61,838 nucleotides of DNA, filler included, from Circinaria calcarea (GCA_051942165.1; 2 parts of 2 records of this genome joined end to end with filler, not necessarily neighbours in it), one strand, 5' to 3'; numbered from the whole stretch's first letter, positions 1,667-31,255 are shown. Translations and numbers: made by a program. The notes: generated from the letters alone by a model not told the origin.

Positions 1667-3979
1667 TCATTTCAAATCAAGACCTTTAGCGACTTGGTCC
1701 AATACCCGAGTTTTGAATGTTCGCATAAGCCTGGGCTGTGTACGGTAATCGTCCCACAGATTTTCAAACCCATCTTCGAGGCAAAGAACTACGGCATCTC
1801 GATAACCGGCCCCCATGGTGTGTCCTAGCGACTGTATGGCAATCTTGACTAATGCCTCTTGGATCAGTTCTGGCCTTGGATTCCTCACCTCTTTTACAAT
1901 TCCCTGTAAGTAGCGATGCTCTAATATATTTTGCCAGAGCCCGATTTCTAAAAGCAAAACCCCGTATGCGTATATATCATGCAACGCGTCGTGTCTCTGC
2001 AGAGGGACGCCATGGCGAGAGGGGTGCCTATATACATTCTTTTCAATATCGTCGACCTCAAGACCGTCTGAAATGTCGGTCTCCCTTCGTGAGTACTGAA
2101 AGCCTCCGAGAAAAGGCTTCGAGAAATCCCACGCCTGACTTCCGGTATTCTGGAAGATGAAAATGTTGCGACTACAGATCTCCTCATGTACCCACCCCAC
2201 AGAATGCCACTTTTGAATAGCGCGTCCGATGTCGTGGGCAATCCGAAACCGTTGTCCAAGGGTTGGTCTGACCTTTCTATAAGAAAGGCCAAGTAACTCG
2301 AAGCAGGTGGCATATGGAAGCGAAAGACCAGAGGGAACCTCAAAAACCAGTCCATAGTGGCGCGCGTAGCTGTCATGGAACCAATGTAGGCAATTCAATG
2401 AACAAAACTCTGTAGGCTTCTCGGAGTTCAAGATTTGTGCAAGTTTTTGGATCTTTATTGCGTCGCGGAGCTTTCTAGCCTGGCCGGGAGACTCCTCATA
2501 TGGCTTGTATTCAACAAGGACATCCATCTGCTTCACAGTTCCTATCACAGTCTTCTCGCCTTCAGGAGTTGATCCTTGGTGTCCATAAACGGACTGTATT
2601 TCCATCGCGTTGATTTCAAGTGAGTTGGAAGCCGATCCAGGGCCTTTGATAAGTCGTACAAGCCGCAGCGGGTTGTTGAGCCCTAGTACTTTGGCTGAAC
2701 TGCTGCAGGCTACATCCTCGAAAGTATCATCAGGCAACGTCACCAACTCGGCTTCCAGTCTGCGGATGACGGAGCTGTTTCGAAGTTCTAGCTCTTGGAC
2801 GAAATGTAGTATCTTCTCTTTTAGCTGTGACACCTTCTCGGGAGAGTTCAGTCCGCCCATTTGGATCCAGATCTGACTGACTTCAGCAAACAGACTGTCG
2901 ACTTCTTGCCAAACATCCAGAATCTCTTGTCTCTGAGCCTTGTCGAATGACTGTACTAATGGAGAAGTGCTGACTGACGAGTCGTGTCCTAGCGTAATCT
3001 GCTGTAGTTGCTCGGTTTGAAGCAACACCTCGTCAACGGCAATCTCCCGTACAAAAGTCGGTGCTTCTACTTTCAGCCACTGTACTAGATCGTGTAAAGA
3101 TCTATCCTGATTGTCTGGGTCTACAGACACGGCTACACGTAACTTTAATTGCGAGATGGCATCCGAAGACTCTGAAACAACCTTGTCTGTGCCAAGGAAA
3201 GGCTTCCAGCGGATAGAACGTCCTTGATGGCCAAGGCTCATATCATCGCGGATAGGTGTCTGCCTTAAGTTTGCTCGTTTGTGTGCTAGGCGATGAGCAA
3301 GGTGCGATGTCATGATTTGATTCATGCTGTCAAGCATCTCATTCATCTCCCTCAGCAGTGCAGTCGTGAATGAAGCGGGACCAGGAGAGGGTGTCTGAAG
3401 TTTCATTGCACATGCCGCAAGCAGCTCGCATTTCCCAGGGTCTTCCCTAACGCGACCTCTTGCAGCCTGAGCACTGTAACAGCAATCCAACAGCAGGAGG
3501 ACATCCGCTTTGCATTTATGGAGGTGAGGCTGAATCTCGTACCAGTCAACAGTTGGACCTCCTCTCAACTGTCTGTCCACATATTAGTGAATTACATCTA
3601 GCCTAAGAAGGGTTTCGGCTCGTTACGCTGCCCAGACAGCCTGCGATTCCCTGTCCATCCCTCTGTCATTGTCTGCGTCTCCATGGCCGCCATAGTGGAT
3701 CACGACCAGATAACCAGGCTTACCTTGGCTTTTGATGAGGTGAATGATTTCCGATAACAGTTCTATATGGCTATTTTCGGAAGGTATAGGATATACGGCT
3801 GTATCGAAACCCATAGAGGCAAAAAACTGAATTACTTTATCGGATTCGTCCTTGTATCCGGCGTCGTCTGCATATTGCCAGTAAAGCGACAGCAAAGATC
3901 CACCAATATAATCATTGCTATTTTCGAAATCGTGATTCAGCTCATTTATAAGTCTTGTTTTCCACAATTGAGGATCCAT
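1667..3979 (-). CDS. Caspase-like (peptidase C14 clan) protease fused to a helical linker and a C-terminal kinase-like pseudokinase, 752 aa, 2 exons (3979-3627, 3572-1667)
   Basis: A 54-nt GT-AG intron joins the ORFs in frame. His-Cys dyad motifs IHYGGHG and LLLDCC are present. The C-terminus has WVHEEICSRNI (in place of HRDLKxxN), LGGFQYSR (in place of DFG), YRHP and DIYAYGVLLLEIGLW, like the kinase-like domain found after fungal HeLo domains. Confidence 0.8.
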
Positions 3980-4805: not shown

Positions 4806-5012
4806 TCAGGCGGCCATGAGCTGTTCTTCTGGCACGGCATTTCCGTCATTGACTTTGTTTTCATTACTATCGCACAGCATATACTGCTCCATATCGATGA
4901 CTTTTGCAATAGTATAAGGGCCCGTAACACCGCGGCTTCCGGGAGCAGCCCAATAGACACTGTCTCCAACACGGTATGTGCTAGCCTTCCATACGTAGTC
5001 CATGAGCGTCAC
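4806..5012 (-). CDS. Small beta-rich (SH3/Tudor-like) domain exon; 5' exons unresolved (candidate splice signals up to about 5190)
   Basis: YRVGDSVY...GPYTIAKV...YMLCD...VPEEQL resembles small SH3-like barrels. Upstream GTAGGC and GTCAGT donors and YAG acceptors exist, but I could not build a fully consistent model. Confidence 0.45.
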   Translation of the reverse strand: MTLMDYVWKASTYRVGDSVYWAAPGSRGVTGPYTIAKVIDMEQYMLCDSNENKVNDGNAVPEEQLMAA

Positions 5013-5875: not shown

Positions 5876-7080
5876 ATGTCTCCAAACTGGGACGAGGTCC
5901 GTGGTAGCGTCTGCTGGTGGTGCAGGTGTCTGACTATTTCCATTCCGGGCTCTTGCTTTGTGTTTGCGGCTCGGAAAGTACGGGAATGGCTTCAACCGCC
6001 GGCTCGACCAAGCTTCACACCACAAGGTACAGTATATATTCGCCCCCCATAAGCAACAGCCTTTTCTTACAAGCAGCACTCCAGTGGAGGATTATCCGTC
6101 CGGCTACCCTCGTCTCTCTGCACTTGTCGGGGCACACCCGTCGTTCTTTGTGTGCCGTCGGTTCTCGACCCTGCGTGCTCGTCTCCTACTACAAAAGCAA
6201 GATCGAGTAGCCAAACTCGAGCATCGACTGCAGCACATCGATGAGGAAGAGCTGCATCCGCTCTTTCTTGGCAGTCTGAGAAGAGACAGGAATCAGGATA
6301 GAGATAGTGTGTTAGCCGATATAGATATAGCTTTGCAAGATTATGGTGAGGCAGTTACATAAATTTATACAGGGCTGAAAATTATAGAGTTTAGAAACGC
6401 TGATAAGATCTTTAAGATAGGTATCTGGAAAGACTTGATCATATCTTCGGTCTCAAGGCCGCAAGACCACGTGATGTCTCCAATCTGCGGAACTGGTTGG
6501 ATTACACGGGATGTGTTGCTCGTGACGAGACTGGGTTTTTAACAGTCGAAAAGGACTTGATTAGTCCCATTAGAGTAGAAGATGGTGCTTTAACGCCTTT
6601 CCAGGAGCTGATAGAGGATGTCGTGATTAGTATTCGGCCTCTTCAGCGTTTTGTGAGTCTGTATCCAAACTACTATTGCCTTTGTCTAACCAATCTACGT
6701 TCATTCAGCTCCGCTACAGCAATGTTTCTCGAGATCCCGATGTTAATATACTGCCTGTCGCCGTGGTAGGGTCCCTCGCGCATTTAATTGCTGTAGGACT
6801 CGTTATGATACTGCTCTTGGTTCCCGTTATTATTATTAATGCTCTAAACAGCATGACAGCCAAAATGGTTACTATAATTATGTCCTGCGCAATCTTTATT
6901 ATGTGTCTTCCGAGTTTCATACGAGCCAACATTAAGGAGACAGTTGTCGCTGGAACAACGTAGGTCTCCCTATATGCGGCCATAGCCCGTCTTAAAATCT
7001 GAGCTTCTTGACTTACGTTCTACAGCTATGCCACCGTCCTAGTCGTTTTCATCGCTGGCAACGGAATCGCCCCGATCTAG
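5876..7080 (+). CDS. DUF6594-family protein with C-terminal transmembrane helices (about 5 exons)
   Basis: The VEDYPSGYPRLSAL...FVCRRFSTLRARLLLQKQD motif, hydrophobic C-terminal segments and terminal TTYATVLVVFI are characteristic of fungal DUF6594. Introns lie at about 6027-6084, 6346-6415, 6653-6708 and 6960-7025. Confidence 0.75.
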
Positions 7081-7331: not shown

Positions 7332-10300
7332 TTAATACAGATTTCCCCAGTCCTCGAGCTCTACGATCTCTGCGTCGAATTGGCGCGGCCTTGCTATACG
7401 GGAATCCTCTCCGGGTGGACTTTGGGACTTGCCCCCTCGTTCAATTATGAGTTCCACGATATCCATAATTGCGAAGTATTTTTCTCCTGTTCTGAATCAG
7501 TCACCTTGTAAATACAGCTATGTCCTCAACGTACTGTTGTAAATCGATGTATCACCGCCCACTAGAATGCGCCTTTGTTAGATAAGCTTACTGTGGAGCA
7601 CTTTGACTAACCAGTCTCCTTCGAAAGGATTTCCCCAGCCCAGAATAGTTCATTAAAGCTGTCCGGACTCCTATTCTTACTGTGGCCTCGATGCCTTGGC
7701 GGTTCTCCTTGCGGTGCGTGTGTGCTCCAGCGCTCTAAGCCAATGCGGCGCAACAGTTCGGCTTTATGCAGAGCGTAATCAAGGATAGAGAGACCGTTCT
7801 TAGAAAGGATTTGCAAATCAATGGTTGGTCGTAATAGGAACTTGACAGTCTCGAGATGGGCGTTCAAGATTGCCACCGTCAAGATATTAGTACCTCTATC
7901 TCTCGCCAAAATGCCGGGTTCGTCCCCATAGAGCTTTGTGATAAGATCGTCATGGCTTACGGCTTCTGTTCAGTTGAAAAGCCTTTTAATAATTCTCAAA
8001 CAAAGGCGGTCGCCGAGCGTATTGTTTCTGCAAGTGGTCCATATTAGATCACCTATATCCTCTTTGTCCAGCTTCACAGCCCCGTGGTAATTAAGCAGGA
8101 ATTCAAAACGGAGCTCAACGTCCTTCCCTTCTGTTACTCTGCGGTTTATTGTAGATTTTAAGAGACTATTACCGTGGTCATTCCTGTGAGTCACATATTT
8201 GCACAGAGGATTTCCGAGCAGGATTTCCATTGCGCGCTTGAAATAATCGAAGGAGGGGTTAGATACCGCATGGTGGAATACATTTTCACCTAGATAATCT
8301 GTCTCGTGAGTTTGGGGCGAAAGATCCATTAGCAGACCAAAGACGGGCTCCCAGGTTCCTGGATATATGAGCTTTTCTCCGGCTAAAGACGCCCAACGAT
8401 GGATTGGTAATCCCTCCAGATCATCACATAAAGATGCGTCCGCTCCAGCTTTCAATAATGCTATGGTTACTCCACCGTCTTTAGATTCGATAGCATCTAA
8501 TAAAGGCGTATTGCCGTTCTGACGTGGGCCCCTTCGGGCGTTGATGTTGCCACCAGCAGCCACTACTAGATTGACGCACTTAGAAACAAGCTCGATATGC
8601 GTAACTTGTCCGCCGTGATTACACCACCAATAAAGGCACTTGGGAAGCCTTAATTTTCGATTCAGAAAGCTTCCTGCGAGCATATGCAAAGGGTTGAGGC
8701 CATGGCCATCAACGCGATTTGGATTGGCTCCACGCTGGAGCAAGAAACTTACCACTTCCGCGTCTCCTCGATACATTGCCATACCTAGAGAAGTATGTGC
8801 TTCATCGTCTGACTCTGAGTCTAATTCATCCACATCAACACCAGCTTGAAGCAAAGCTTCCATCGCTGGGAGAGATCTCGTGAAGCAAGCCCAGTGAAAA
8901 GGTGAGCCGATAGGCCAATGGAACGGGAAATGCTCGAACAGAATGTGTTGCCAATATGTCCCTTGTCTTGCATTTCTCGTTCTAGCGCTGAGATATGCGG
9001 ATCTCGATTGTAACATTTGGACAACTGCTTCGATGGAGCCCTCATCGAACATGAATAACCAGTGAAGGCATGATATGTGAGCCACTGCCGTCGTTATGGA
9101 CGCATCTGCATTAAGCTCGACCAAAACCTTGAGGGTCTCGAAGTTGCCTGCTCTGGCAGCTTTGTAAAGGGCTGTCTGTCCTTCGCAATCCACTTCGTCT
9201 ATGCTGAATGGATTGGCAAGTCTAAGAATGTCGGCTACAGTGCCGTATATCGCCGCTTCATGAAGTTGCATTACCGCTGTACTGCCTTGGACAGTAGACG
9301 GGCGTGGCGAAATCCCAATTGGCGATATCGATCCATTAAAGCCTCCACATTTACGAAACGCTCCCCAAGCCTGCTCCTCCAAAGAGTGTGACATTTCGCG
9401 AAGTTGCCACAAAGCTGTAAATGAGCCACTAGCCGCAGCCTCAAGGAGCCAGACCCTTCCTTGATGCAGCTTTTCCGTCGAGGATAGACTTGATGCTGAG
9501 CCGCATGCTCTGGAGATCTGGTTGAGGAGGCCCTTCGCCGCCAAACACGAGGCTTGCGCAGCAGCTCGCATATATTTCAAGGTGTCTCCTTGGTAACCAT
9601 CCCTTTTCGCAGAAGCGGTGCAAATTGATAGACCGAATAGAGACGCACTTGAAAAGCTAGTACTATCCACATCATACTCCCTATGCAGCTGAGAGAGCAA
9701 TGCGCTATCCATACTTCTCCAAAACTCGAACCAGGATCTTAGCGCAGGATTTGATGGATCAGGGTCACGCTCAAGCAACTTCTTGCCATTTGCCCTGTAA
9801 GAGAATTTAGGCAAATAAACCAAAGGTAAGCCAAAGGCCAAAATGGAGCAACTTACCAATTCCTGTACGTCTCACTATCGTCGCAGAGCAACTCTGGATT
9901 TACATCTGGCCGCAAATTAGGCTTATGAGCAAGAAGCTGGGAAACTCGTAAACGTAGCACCGTTGCAAGTGGCTGAGCTATCAACGTATCGTCTTTCCAG
10001 TCTTTTGTGCTATCAGGTACAAATGGCTGCTGTCCGTTTCGTAAAAAGACAGAGAATACAAGCAAACCATAAACATAACAATCACACTTGAAGAAAAGCT
10101 GTTGAGGCATTACTTTACTCCATCTCGTCTTAGTTTCGTAGACTTCTGGGGGTTTCCAGCCTTGAGTACCAGTATACATACTATATGTCATTGATGTCGA
10201 GTTTGGCAGGCTTAGTTCAATAAAAGCACCAAAGTCCGCCAATTTTGCTATAAATGGGACACGTGGATTCGCAGATTCCGTTACAAGGATATTATCAGGT

Positions 10301-10941
10301 TTCAGGTCTCCGTGGACGATATTGCAGCTGTGAACATGGCGAAGACCTTCAGCTATATCTAAACACAGCTGATGCTTGATATCTGTCGATGGAAGCTTTT
10401 GATTTAGAAACGTCTTTAGGGATCCGATGGCTTTCTCAATCATTAATAAGGGACGAAAATCTGAGTTGTAAAACGAAGAATAATCGAAGCCCCATGATTT
10501 GATTTGTATAATGTTGATATGAGATTTTATATCGTCTCGCGCCAGAGCATAGATTTCCCGTTCGAACAACCCAAGGTCGGGTCTCCGTTGCTATATTCAA
10601 TAATATATTAGCTCTTCCGGCGACTTTGCGCACTGGCGTGCCATAAGAGCACCCACCCTTCGGTAAACCATACTGGTCACAATGTCGTGAGCGTCGTCGA
10701 ATATATCAAAGAATCCTCCTGACGCTCTGTATGAGCCCGCTGCGGACAGATTCGCTTCCCTCATGTGCCATGGCCCTGAGATACTGCGCTCCGCGAGCAG
10801 AGCAACTAGTTTTGGTAGGTGAGCCGAGCGAGAGTTTCTGGTTCCTGTTTCTCCCAACAGCGCCTTAGACGCAAGAATCTCATTTGTCGCCAGGGACTGT
10901 TGTGTTCGACGGCCTTCGTCATTTGACGCGTATGTACTCAT
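7332..10941 (-). pseudogene. Protein kinase + Sel1/TPR-like linker + ankyrin-repeat gene with in-frame premature TGA at 7970-7972 (truncated allele or pseudogene)
   Basis: Kinase motifs HGDLKPDNIL, LADFG, GTQGWKPPE and DCYVYG. Many ankyrin repeats (GQTALYKAA, HTSLGMAM, GLNPLHMLA, GNTPLLDAI, GENVFHHAV). Introns at about 10656-10591, 9856-9795, 7611-7562 and 7534-7487. ORFs 7970..9859 and 7607..7909 share a frame and are separated only by one TGA. Confidence 0.7.
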
Positions 10942-11853
10942 GGTGGGTCGCTATATTTCCGTTGCTCTTGAAAGAAATAAATTGGCTGAGTATTAGGGTA
11001 AATGGGGCAGGCACATCTACGGAGTAAGCCAACTGTTTACAGCTAGATTGTATGATGCTTAGCCTCAAATGAGTGCTCCGGATTCTAAACTTATCACGAT
11101 ATGCAGGGACTATGCCGGCGGCTGTGTTACTATGCTTATTGGCTACAGGTAGAAGCCTAGACTGCAGTGTAATTAGAATAGTATCATGCTGCTCTAAGAC
11201 TCTTGTTCAAAGCGGCAATTGCTTTTCTCTGGTGGCGATGAAAATGCCTCCATAACCTTAACCCCTGTGGCTCCGCGTGCGTGCGTTCCTTGAATACAAG
11301 GTTGGGATTGGTCAAGCTAGGCTAACACGGTCTACCAGAACAACAGCTCGAGGAATTGCTTTTGACGCCAAGTCAACAAAGCTAAAATGTCTGCAAAGTA
11401 ACCTCGACCCCGAGCGAGCAGAAGTACTGCTTTGGTATGATACGTAGACCTTTGTGTGATTGGCTATGATAATATTGGGATAAAGGGTCCGAAGATGTTG
11501 GCGGTCCCGCTAACGGATAAATTCCCCGACTTTAAGGTTGGAAAAATGTTTGACCGAAGGGTTTGATTCTCAGCCCTGTCAGCTCCTGACTTGGATTCTC
11601 AGTACGACTCCATCGTTTGACATCATTGGATGCTTACGCCCTCTCCAACTTTTTGCCACCACCACAGGAGAAAAATGTCGTGTCGAAGGGCGTCCATCTT
11701 CCTCCGTCGTCGACATGCTGTGAAGGAATCCTCCATATTGATCGCCCCACGCTATAATCGACCGAGAATTCATCCGAACCCTCTGACGCAACGAGACTCG
11801 ACGGGAAAGCTCCTGACCTGACATGAACTATATATACGCCCTTGGCGCCAAGT

Positions 11854-14211
11854 ATGATTCGCGCAGATGAGCTGCATGGCCGACAGATTTGGGTTATGCC
11901 AACCAGCACGAGCAGCTCCCTGCGTCGGCACTGCACCCCATTTACGCTTCCTTCCAACGGCATCCTCACCATCGACTCCACCTCGGTCATCACTTTGAGT
12001 CAGAATGCCGTCTTTCAACCCGAGTGTACGAAGCCTCCGTCGCCGCTACCGAATGCAACAAGCTCGGAGACAGCCATTTTCAATACTAGAGACCCCTTCT
12101 ACATTTCCATCTCGCCCCAGATTTACGCAACCGCAACCACCACGGTCGTCAGCTACATGCTCGTCATTATGCTGTTCATCACACCGCGGACCTTCTTCAT
12201 CGGAGGGGCGGGGGGAGGAAGCCGATTTCTCGGGCGCCGTGGTTTGATAAGTGGAGCGTCTGGGAGTGCATCTGTTGTCGGTGTTGGGGGGAGACCTTGG
12301 CTGCAAAAGGTTGCGACTCTCACGGTTGCCATATCCTTGACCATTGCGACGGTGGATACCTTCGAGGTCGCTAAAGCGCAGTACGACAAGGGGTATCAAG
12401 ATGCCACCGCTCTCACAGATCGCGTGGTTGGAGGACTTGAGATACGGGTGATAAGAATCATATCCGACACTTTTCTGTGGCTTGCGCAAGTCCAGACTTT
12501 GATCCGACTGTTTCCCAGACACAAAGAAAAGGTCATTATCAAGTGGATTGGATTTGCACTCATTATCCTGGATACCCTCTTTAGTATTCTCAACACGTTT
12601 GTCAGCGACCATGGTAGGGTTCGACCCCGGAGATTCGTCGAAGCGATCCCTGCGGTGAGCTATCTGTTTGAGCTTGCTTTGAGCTTGCTCTATGCCGCAT
12701 GGGTCATATATTATTCCTTTGAAAAACGCCGGTTCGCCTTCTTCCATCCCAAAATGCGAAATATATGTTTGGTGGCAATCTTGTCTCTCTCAGCCGTACT
12801 CGTACCTGTCACTTTCTTTGTACTGGAAATCTCCAAGCCTGATATAGCCAGATGGGGAGATTACGTGCGATGGGTAGGGGCTGCGGCCGCAAGTGTGGTT
12901 GTATGGGAATGGGTTGAAAGAATAGAAGCACTAGAAAGAGATGAGAGAAAGGAGGGCATACTCGGCAGGGAGATTTTCGATGGAGACGAGATGCTTGACC
13001 TAACACCATCATCTGAGGGGAACTGGCCAAGGAATCTGAGAGATCCACGCCGAGGTTCCGGAGGAGACAGGCATATCAATACAACTGGACGGTCTGGTGT
13101 GAGCAAAACTGTCGGCACAGCAGAGCAGACAGCAAGGTCACGTGTCCCGCCAAGATACGTCAAGTACGCCCGCCGTAAAAACGGGGGCATTGGACCCTTG
13201 GATCGTGGAGCTATCATAAGTGGTGCAGTAGATTCGCGGACCTTATCCCATCAGAATCACCCGACGCCACCTTTACCGGTGGCTTCGCCTATAAGTCGAT
13301 CAGACACGACAAGTGCCTCAAGCACCGTTTACGCTGTGCATTATCATACTATCAGCACTTCAACTTCTCCAGGTCCAGATCTATCTAGTATACGTTCGAG
13401 AAGATATATGAACGGTGAGTCTTTCTCGACACCAACGCCCCCGGCGGCGCCATTAATCGCCCCTGGTACCACAAACGGGACGATAGAGCAACACAGCACA
13501 TTGAATACGCCTCCAGTACCATCGAACGTTGAACCGGGACCTCGTTGGCAAAACCTTGTGCACAATCCTTTCAAAAGACAACGGACGACTCCACCTCCAG
13601 AAGTAGCACACGCAACTCAGCGCCTTGCAAATGATTCATCACCTACAGCAGCTCGCCACAAGCATTCTGTCCGAAATACCCGCATGGCTGATCGGCTACG
13701 AGTAAAGAGACGCCCGAGAGCGCCAGACGTGGCCCTACCCGTGGTCACAATCCCAGCTCAGCCACGTGGTAAAACTTACAAGCCTCCAGATCTGTCAACG
13801 GGAACCGCACAAGTTACCCAAAGCGACGAATATGCAGTTAATGGTACTCCGAGTGAACTCATTGAGGATTCTGAACAGGCTCCGTCTTCGTCCCAGCAGA
13901 GACCGTCCCCGTCTTTGGAACTACCTAACAATGAATCAATAGCGACTCAGCGCCGTGATCAGATGGTACCGAGGGTATGTCGACCTCATGATTCCGTACC
14001 CGGGACAGGTACTTTTCATCGGCCATTAGGAGGCGATGTGCCCCCGGCACCAGTGCCTGCTGATATATCTCTTGGAGCAACGGACGAGTTTACAACCAGG
14101 CTGGCTCGCGAATTATCTGACCATCCCGAGCCGGAACATACATACCCAGTCCAGCCGTTGCAGAGGGCACCGAGTACAGATACTGCGTTAGAGTCAAGAA
14201 AACCACCATGA
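11854..14211 (+). CDS. palH: pH-response 7-transmembrane sensor PalH/Rim21
   Basis: RPWLQKVA, WLAQVQTLIRLFPRHKEK and VVWEWVERIEALERDERKEGILGREIFDGDEM motifs. Multiple TM helices followed by a long disordered tail. Single exon. Confidence 0.93.
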   Translation: MIRADELHGRQIWVMPTSTSSSLRRHCTPFTLPSNGILTIDSTSVITLSQNAVFQPECTKPPSPLPNATSSETAIFNTRDPFYISISPQIYATATTTVVSYMLVIMLFITPRTFFIGGAGGGSRFLGRRGLISGASGSASVVGVGGRPWLQKVATLTVAISLTIATVDTFEVAKAQYDKGYQDATALTDRVVGGLEIRVIRIISDTFLWLAQVQTLIRLFPRHKEKVIIKWIGFALIILDTLFSILNTFVSDHGRVRPRRFVEAIPAVSYLFELALSLLYAAWVIYYSFEKRRFAFFHPKMRNICLVAILSLSAVLVPVTFFVLEISKPDIARWGDYVRWVGAAAASVVVWEWVERIEALERDERKEGILGREIFDGDEMLDLTPSSEGNWPRNLRDPRRGSGGDRHINTTGRSGVSKTVGTAEQTARSRVPPRYVKYARRKNGGIGPLDRGAIISGAVDSRTLSHQNHPTPPLPVASPISRSDTTSASSTVYAVHYHTISTSTSPGPDLSSIRSRRYMNGESFSTPTPPAAPLIAPGTTNGTIEQHSTLNTPPVPSNVEPGPRWQNLVHNPFKRQRTTPPPEVAHATQRLANDSSPTAARHKHSVRNTRMADRLRVKRRPRAPDVALPVVTIPAQPRGKTYKPPDLSTGTAQVTQSDEYAVNGTPSELIEDSEQAPSSSQQRPSPSLELPNNESIATQRRDQMVPRVCRPHDSVPGTGTFHRPLGGDVPPAPVPADISLGATDEFTTRLARELSDHPEPEHTYPVQPLQRAPSTDTALESRKPP

Positions 14212-30923: not shown

Positions 30924-31255
30924 ATGGCAGACACCGACCCCAAAGAGCAGGCCCCGGAGCAGCCCTCGGAGGAGCAGTCCGAGCAAAAACCTCTACCAGA
31001 GTGGAATCTCTCGAAGCAAGAAGCCCCAGGAGGTACGTTCCCCCACCATACCTTTCTATCTCCTCTCCCTCCCCTTTCAATACCCCNNNNNNNNNNNNNN
31101 NNNNNNNNNNNNNNNNNNNNNNNNNNNNNNTTAATTAATTAANNNNNNNNNNNNNNNNNNNNNNNNNNNNNNNNNNNNNNNNNNNNCCCCCCCCCCTGGC
31201 AGGCCCTTCCGATTGGTCGAGCATCCTCCCGAAACGGAACTTGGTCCAGTTCTGA
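30924..31255 (+). CDS. Putative two-exon micro-protein (53 aa) whose intron spans the assembly gap
   Basis: An AAAATGG start context, a GTACGT donor at 31033 and a CAG acceptor at 31202 join in phase: MADTDPKEQAPEQPSEEQSEQKPLPEWNLSKQEAPGGPSDWSSILPKRNLVQF*. Confidence 0.45.
31087..31186. other. Assembly gap with artificial six-frame stop linker
   Basis: 44 N + TTAATTAATTAA + 44 N = 100 nt, flanked by C-runs on both sides. Confidence 0.95.

Follow-up and report, generated by a model that had tools for sequence, protein, structure and literature searches.

The window, the whole 61,838-nucleotide stretch of Circinaria calcarea DNA that we analysed, consists of contigs joined by a spacer. Its first part, contig C42 (window 1-31086), carries four clustered genes: a fusion gene whose predicted product joins a caspase-like protease to an MLKL-like pseudokinase, a small gene, a gene for a DUF6594 membrane protein, and a gene combining a kinase with ankyrin repeats (Table 1). 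A PalH/RIM21 gene (11827-14211) is an ordinary neighbour beyond the cluster. Runs of N with a short spacer at 31087-31186 mark the contig join, and the DNA beyond it has no linkage to the cluster.

Table 1. Features of the four-gene cluster, in window positions
Feature	Position	Strand	Remarks
Gene for caspase-like protease, putative HeLo remnant with brace, and pseudokinase	1667..3979	-	752 aa, two exons; AlphaFold mean pLDDT 87.3
Caspase-haemoglobinase (metacaspase-like) domain	3197..3907	-	residues 25-243
His99 (catalytic dyad)	3683-3685	-	
Cys149 (catalytic dyad)	3479-3481	-	
Intron	3573..3626	-	54 nt, phase 2, between catalytic His and Cys
Trp283/Pro289 segment	3038..3160	-	residues 256-296; conserved, in the place of HeLo helix 1; pLDDT about 60
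Three helices	2741..3037	-	residues 297-395; match HeLo helices 2 (second half), 3 and 4
Brace-like helices	2645..2731	-	residues 399-427; common to HeLo-pseudokinases; homologous to HeLo-kinase linker
Pseudokinase	1670..2638	-	residues 430-752; VLVE472YK, H580EE, G608FQ, YRHP; Ser619 at 2069-2071
Small gene	4806..5003	-	~60-65 aa; homologs in 13/14 informative loci; 5' end unsure
DUF6594 membrane-protein gene	5986..7080	+	five exons, 283 aa, intact
Kinase / helical / ankyrin gene	7604..10941	-	three exons; HGDLKPDN and DFG intact; Arg at beta3 Lys

The fusion gene has two exons on the minus strand (3979-3627 and 3572-1667), whose spliced product of 752 amino acids contains one stop and matches NCBI protein P0003, a hypothetical protein from a Circinaria calcarea MAG, in every residue. 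The intron between them shows the signals GTAACG...CTAAT...CAG, with the branch-like motif 16 nt before the acceptor; the GTAACG donor is not the commonest form. A GT donor at this codon position recurs in 33 of the 39 related metagenome loci, five others have no intron between His and Cys and read straight through, and one (L063) is a broken copy. Alternative in-frame splice pairs exist on paper and were rejected because the homologs fix the position of the donor. The splice by which the earlier note had united His99 and Cys149 is borne out by the reading frame, the identity with P0003 and the shared donor position. The same note had claimed that automated reading misses the protease. This is true of intron-blind gene callers, the only ones to lose exon 1 (P0004-P0013, 622-637 aa), but not of the NCBI model, which has the spliced protein and in which Pfam calls C14.

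The N-terminal part of the protein has the caspase or metacaspase fold that had been expected of it. Residues 25-243 of the AlphaFold model match Arabidopsis metacaspase 4 (6w8r) with Z 19.7 and an rmsd of 2.7 over 206 aligned residues, and Pfam assigns P0003 to C14 with a score of 24.2 bits against a cut-off of 21.4. The His-Cys dyad is intact: H99 is invariant in the 62 full-length rows of a 113-row alignment, and C149 is present in 60 of them. We take Cys149, not Cys148, to be the catalytic residue, by the Asp-x-Cys pattern of metacaspases; P0078 and P0137 carry a Tyr at its position. The full-length rows also keep two candidate S1 acids without exception, Asp147 and a Glu or Asp at the position of Glu45 (62/62 each), and an Arg or Lys at position 156, just past the catalytic Cys, in 56 of 62. 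Glu45 and Asp147 appear to correspond to Asp95 and Asp211 of the S1 pocket proposed for TbMCA2 (PMC4357240), and acids at these positions suggest a basic P1 residue, so that the protease would cleave after Arg or Lys.

The domain shares its fold and His-Cys dyad with the metacaspases (clan CD, C14B; Arabidopsis MC4, Trypanosoma MCA2), and apparently also the Asp two residues ahead of the Cys and the acid at the start of helix 1. Unlike metacaspases, it has no long prodomain and carries a 500-residue regulatory tail, and its sequence similarity to them is low, with Pfam barely above the cut-off. It departs from the type I metacaspases in that the first strand runs from residue 26 and a long C-terminal fusion stands in place of a stand-alone enzyme. 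A PDB sequence search aimed at the protease part returned a match list filled by kinases, and neither P0003 nor any of 12 relatives had a Pfam CHAT match at E up to 0.1.

At the C-terminus, residues 430-752 of the model adopt the kinase fold that had been foreseen, of the tyrosine-kinase-like type (Z about 22 to BRAF, Fes and IRAK1). When the family profile is searched against PDB sequences, MLKL ranks first (E 2e-8), in line with the proposed MLKL-like pseudokinase. The catalytic HRD Asp and the DFG motif, reported as missing in the earlier note, are missing across the family: Asp occurs at the HRD Asp position in 3 and at the DFG Asp position in 1 of 113 rows, and in no row at both. The beta3 Lys is replaced by Glu472, with Glu in 106 of 112 rows. 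P0003 itself has no match to DUF7580, many relatives pass or come near its cut-off, and the profiles align at a probability of 100.

Position 619, in the activation loop, carries Ser or Thr in all 113 rows; the other columns of the loop have at most 27% Ser/Thr, except that of Ser612 (62%). Profile alignment places Ser or Thr at this position in nearly all caspase fusions (65 of 66) and HeLo forms (31 of 33), and in half of the tandem-kinase forms (3 of 6). Ser619 aligns with the MLKL Ser that lies eleven residues past the Gly of GFE and counts as mouse Ser347, once a 5-residue tag is allowed for. RIPK3 phosphorylates mouse MLKL at S345, S347 and T349 (PMC11893596). Ser619 is a candidate phospho-switch, and its conservation supports the idea of a protease that may be gated by the pseudokinase.

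The region between the two domains bears on the suggestion that the protease replaces the HeLo domain. For the first helix the suggestion stands. The hydrophobic N-terminal helix is gone, the median 19-residue hydropathy peak being 0.56 against 1.40, and residues 256-296, in its place, weakly resemble the stretch that opens the C-terminal domain in stand-alone caspase-like proteins (E 6e-4 to L004). For the remainder it is not supported, in that helices 2-4 and the brace still align. The family profile aligns with the HeLo-pseudokinase profile from residue 367 through to the C-terminus (HHalign probability 100). With the kinase excluded, the alignment of residues 293-429 to the 17 nearest HeLo-pseudokinases runs collinearly through HeLo helices 2-4 and the brace (HHalign probability 90.8, E 1e-6), and a reversed control reaches 0.5. 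The HeLo signal is carried by residues 360-430 (94.6, or 91.6 against all 73), residues 296-365 alone being weak (12.2), and against the 56 more distant proteins the HHalign probability is 6.6. The AlphaFold model has helices across the middle region. A fold search with residues 250-435 gave generic helical bundles (best Z 9.2) and no HeLo or MLKL chain among the matches listed; Pfam gave no HeLo match in the fusion protein, and an ESM Atlas search with the middle region gave no usable match. The profile alignments indicate that the last HeLo helix and the brace are retained, and helices 2-3 are probably retained as well. Two caspase-pseudokinase relatives, P0119 and P0161, are without part of the middle region or of the kinase N-lobe.

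Among the neighbouring genes, the DUF6594 protein has two strong hydrophobic segments near its C-terminus; a PDB sequence search with DUF6594 returned nothing credible, and an ESM Atlas search with a DUF6594 protein no usable match. The product of the small gene, presumably an SH3/Tudor-like barrel as labelled by eye, has no informative Pfam match. Its homolog in L025 has no Met at the corresponding start position, and no homologs were found in L116-L148. The helical part of the kinase-ankyrin protein is SEL1-like by eye. An in-frame stop at 7970-7972 shortens this protein to 947 aa, against about 1068, with loss of the last ankyrin repeats; the ortholog in L025 reads through this position, and the stop may be an allele, decay or an assembly error. 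An Arg occupies the beta3 Lys position both in the window (10657-10668) and in L025 (about 1490-1500), and the catalytic Asp, Lys and Asn and the DFG Asp are kept in 17 of 17 rows of partner kinases. The Arg and the in-frame stop together suggest that the kinase copy in this genome may be impaired. Against the ortholog L025, dN/dS is 0.08-0.33 over the parts of the fusion gene, the partner gene and the DUF6594 exon tested, with 0.24 for the partner kinase and 0.14 for the HeLo helices and brace. The fusion gene, its partner and DUF6594 are thus under purifying selection.

The association of the four genes was assessed in 39 loci and the window, scanned with neighbour profiles that were seeded from these same loci. 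Dereplication at 90% identity gave 28 groups, of which 14 had at least 4 kb of flank and were kept; the 14 with less were left out. In the 14 dereplicated loci, the window included, the kinase-ankyrin gene, DUF6594 and the small gene are each present in 13, and all four genes in 11; when grouping is done at 60% identity, both larger partners are found in 10 of 12 groups. Missing within the available flank are DUF6594 at L026, the kinase at L040 and the small gene at L050/51. Gene order and orientation differ among loci and most relatives are 25-35% identical, and the linkage is therefore not leftover synteny. The groups with less than 4 kb of flank show a partner in L036/37, L039 and L053, DUF6594 in L052, and the small gene in L030, L044 and L052. 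None of the three neighbour genes was found in 18 control stretches of 10 kb, picked by round contig numbers, which held one weak pseudokinase-like match, and a DUF6594 locus would be expected to fall within 8 kb by chance in about 1.4% of cases. Pfam alone recovers kinase and ankyrin in 11 loci, with ankyrin at a contig edge in 2, and DUF6594 in 4 loci, those with an ORF long enough for the scan. In a mirror-tree comparison of 9-14 loci the distances of the four genes correlate (rho 0.30-0.82). Shared kinship also explains this result, which has no housekeeping control, and we therefore give it little weight. Linkage in itself gives no order of events.

Other genes adjoin some of the clusters, among them a HET-domain gene (L045:2467-4554), a Goodbye-NACHT-TPR gene (L051:3058-7756) and an AbiEii-type gene (L025:11925-12800). 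In P0060 the ankyrin part of the partner and the caspase-pseudokinase lie in one ORF. P0294 combines the kinase-ankyrin protein with DUF6594, and P0334 combines DUF6594 with TPR and CHAT; both are maybe merged gene models. Pfam named no gasdermin among 62 neighbouring ORFs.

Elsewhere in the genome of C. calcarea the parts of the cluster are found separately. Eight of 12 caspase-like loci adjoin DUF6594, four of the eight having first been found from the DUF6594 side, and the remaining four of the 12 lie on short contigs (1.7-4.6 kb). DUF6594 occupies 28 loci by our own grouping of 53 matches. Twelve of them have a protease neighbour, which belongs to the caspase-like family in 8, is another C14 protein in 2 (one with CHAT) and a retropepsin in 2, and 16 have no clear protease neighbour. 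Eleven other pseudokinase loci divide into six that adjoin a kinase-ankyrin or kinase-TPR gene, three that adjoin a TPR or NACHT-TPR gene and two with no kinase or repeat neighbour; neither DUF6594 nor the small gene was found beside any of the 11. A pseudokinase gene lies next to three of the four paralogs closest to the partner kinase. The kinase follows the pseudokinase and DUF6594 follows the protease, and the fusion gene therefore bridges two modules.

Canonical-looking C14 genes at L110:1-3900 and L113:500-3800 adjoin the small barrel gene and DUF6594, and one of them is head-to-tail with a CHAT gene. Retropepsin-type genes adjoin DUF6594 at L091:1-1074, L094:3040-3891 and L102:4542-5951 (the last a weak match, E 0.011), and at L097 a TPR gene stands in place of the retropepsin gene.

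A word-based search recovered 55 relatives of the fusion protein among 7,999 candidates, and a full scan with a limit of E 1e-30 found 230 cluster representatives, the 150 best of which are listed. The architecture recurs in at least 73 proteins with both protease halves and a kinase-like domain. Named relatives include Lepraria, Teloschistes, Trichophaea, Xylaria, Paramyrothecium, Lachnellula and Hymenoscyphus, which we take to span four classes of filamentous ascomycetes; this range suggests that the protease-pseudokinase architecture is old and widespread, not a one-off. The genome of C. calcarea also has HeLo-only and kinase-HeLo-pseudokinase forms, and N-terminal parts have therefore been exchanged on one scaffold. 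In a quick, unrooted tree of 105 pseudokinase domains, the caspase fusions fall into two groups among the HeLo forms, and well-supported branches force 2 changes. The tree and the forms in the genome agree with the module swapping on a HeLo-kinase scaffold that the architecture had first suggested. The counts leave out 25 weak partial matches (L064-L088).

Seven genes of this genome (L010-L013, L015, L016, L022) encode a kinase, a HeLo-like part and a pseudokinase, and most of them adjoin a kinase-TPR, kinase-ankyrin or TPR gene. At L020:448-3684, HeLo and pseudokinase are joined to a C-terminal region of ~500 aa with no Pfam match.

The cluster resembles several known systems in part. Animal MLKL/RIPK3 likewise has a helical bundle, a brace and a pseudokinase, the putative bundle of the fusion protein being only partial. 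A GFE-type motif in place of DFG, an activation-loop Ser at the mouse Ser347 position and a linked kinase with an intact catalytic loop are also alike. In contrast to MLKL, the fusion protein has a protease in front, no membrane helix and Glu for the beta3 Lys, and it appears to act through proteolysis instead of forming pores directly; in contrast to RIPK3, the partner kinase carries ankyrin repeats. Fungal proteins that join HeLo/HELL to a kinase-like domain (Pfam HeLo + DUF7580) are homologous to the fusion protein from residue 367 to the end, and they share its dead-kinase motifs and its pairing with kinase-repeat genes. They differ from it in that the fusion protein has the caspase-like domain and the Trp/Pro segment in the place of HeLo helix 1, and the fusion gene, unlike HeLo-only loci, is additionally linked to DUF6594 and the small gene. 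Fungal gasdermin or HET-Q2-like clusters (Clave et al. 2022, PMC8851545) also set a multidomain protease beside a candidate membrane effector, with repeat-bearing sensors and many copies per genome. The protease here is of the C14 type, not S8 or CHAT, its neighbour is an alpha-helical DUF6594 membrane protein and not a gasdermin, and the four-gene cluster further includes a separate kinase gene and a microprotein. The cluster is MLKL/RIPK3-like on the input side and gasdermin-cluster-like on the output side, and it belongs to neither system, since the fusion protein lacks the membrane helix and the gene beside it encodes no gasdermin.

The literature searched, exclusive of supplements (Dataset S2 of PMC8851545 may list architectures), yielded no description of the protease-pseudokinase fusion or of the cluster in the accessible parts of the papers, and neither is covered in those of PMC9815663, PMC12258605 and PMC11138114. 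The accessible sections 18 and 21 of PMC12881547 mention HELL-kinase proteins and also S8/CHAT proteases, linked to gasdermins, that carry fused predicted kinase-like domains. This mention is the nearest printed hint, and section 18 of this 2025 review asks for a wider study of HeLo/4HB proteins. A search for "DUF6594" and "PF20237", with subscription journals largely outside its scope, found no paper, and the accessible parts of reviews show no kinase-triggered MLKL-type pathway in fungi. The fusion and the four-gene cluster are real, conserved and undescribed in the searchable literature.

From the folds, motifs, linkage and selection observed, we infer the following series of steps and its outcome. 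The kinase-ankyrin protein would sense a signal through its repeats and would phosphorylate the pseudokinase at Ser619, as RIPK3 does MLKL. The brace and the HeLo remnant would then relay the change or drive oligomerisation, without membrane entry; the remnant is proposed to stay out of the membrane because its first helix is gone. The protease, probably Arg/Lys-specific, would be switched on and would cut or otherwise activate DUF6594, with the small barrel protein as an adaptor or inhibitor. In this way the fusion would wire an MLKL-type input module to an output module of protease and membrane protein. That a kinase phosphorylates the pseudokinase and so turns on a protease with DUF6594 as its target, probably to serve defence or cell death, is our best model, and we judge its chances to be evenly balanced. 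A cell-death role of the cluster is suggested by analogy with the systems above. In its most specific form, the proposal is a hybrid ascomycete death pathway that leads from a RIPK-like kinase-ankyrin protein through an MLKL-type switch, which would turn on a fused metacaspase-fold protease where MLKL sets free a pore-forming bundle, to DUF6594 as a new alpha-helical, non-gasdermin executioner; we put this form forward tentatively, at somewhat less than an even chance.

The same four genes could instead form a circuit that does not kill, in which DUF6594 is an anchor, channel or signal precursor and the protease frees a signal or cuts another protein. DUF6594 resembles no known pore former and also pairs with retropepsin-type proteases (L091, L094), and the lack of a named gasdermin in the 62 neighbouring ORFs fits as well. 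However, a protease beside an effector, clustered with TPR or ankyrin sensors, is the layout of fungal gasdermin loci (PMC8851545 section 10), CHAT occurs with DUF6594 (L110, P0334), and relatives adjoin HET and NACHT-TPR genes (L045, L051), so that we consider a non-lethal circuit unlikely.

The fusion protein might also be an executioner in its own right, with self-cleavage freeing the HeLo-like bundle to attack membranes and with DUF6594 and the small protein as inhibitors or accessories. The selection that keeps the HeLo helices and brace (dN/dS 0.14) and the retention of Arg/Lys156 in 56 of 62 rows speak for this. It is rendered quite improbable by the absence of the hydrophobic first helix, which is key for membrane targeting in HET-S (PMC12881547 section 18), and by the observation that DUF6594 follows caspase-like genes with no HeLo part.

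Phosphorylation, too, may not be the switch, if the pseudokinase serves as a decoy or scaffold over which the kinase-ankyrin protein stands guard, or if the latter is the substrate. The beta3 Arg shared by the partners in the window and L025, both nevertheless under purifying selection, points in this direction, as does the presence of Ser/Thr at position 619 in only 3 of 6 tandem kinase-HeLo-pseudokinases. Set against these are the Ser or Thr in all 113 rows of an otherwise variable loop and the invariant catalytic-loop residues of the 17 partner kinases, which leave such a role with a low probability. A stand-alone pseudokinase-gated protease, with HeLo wholly exchanged and incidental neighbours, would agree with the lack of a Pfam HeLo match and of HeLo or MLKL chains among the top fold-search rows for the middle part, but it is very improbable, as the middle part matches HeLo-kinases by profile and four-gene linkage in shuffled orders among relatives about 25-35% identical largely contradicts it.

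For the preferred model, in which a kinase acts through the pseudokinase and its fused protease on DUF6594, gene linkage names a candidate kinase, a phospho-site, a protease and a candidate substrate, and each arrow is therefore testable with four small constructs. The cluster provides a first lead on DUF6594, a large orphan membrane family that occupies 28 loci of this genome, and on a family of caspase-like proteins that lies apart from the classical metacaspases of fungi. A pseudokinase gating a protease to which it is fused would put the MLKL switch to a new use. If the hybrid death pathway exists, a necroptosis-type input and a pyroptosis-type output would be combined in one gene cluster, and the two modules would be interchangeable parts.
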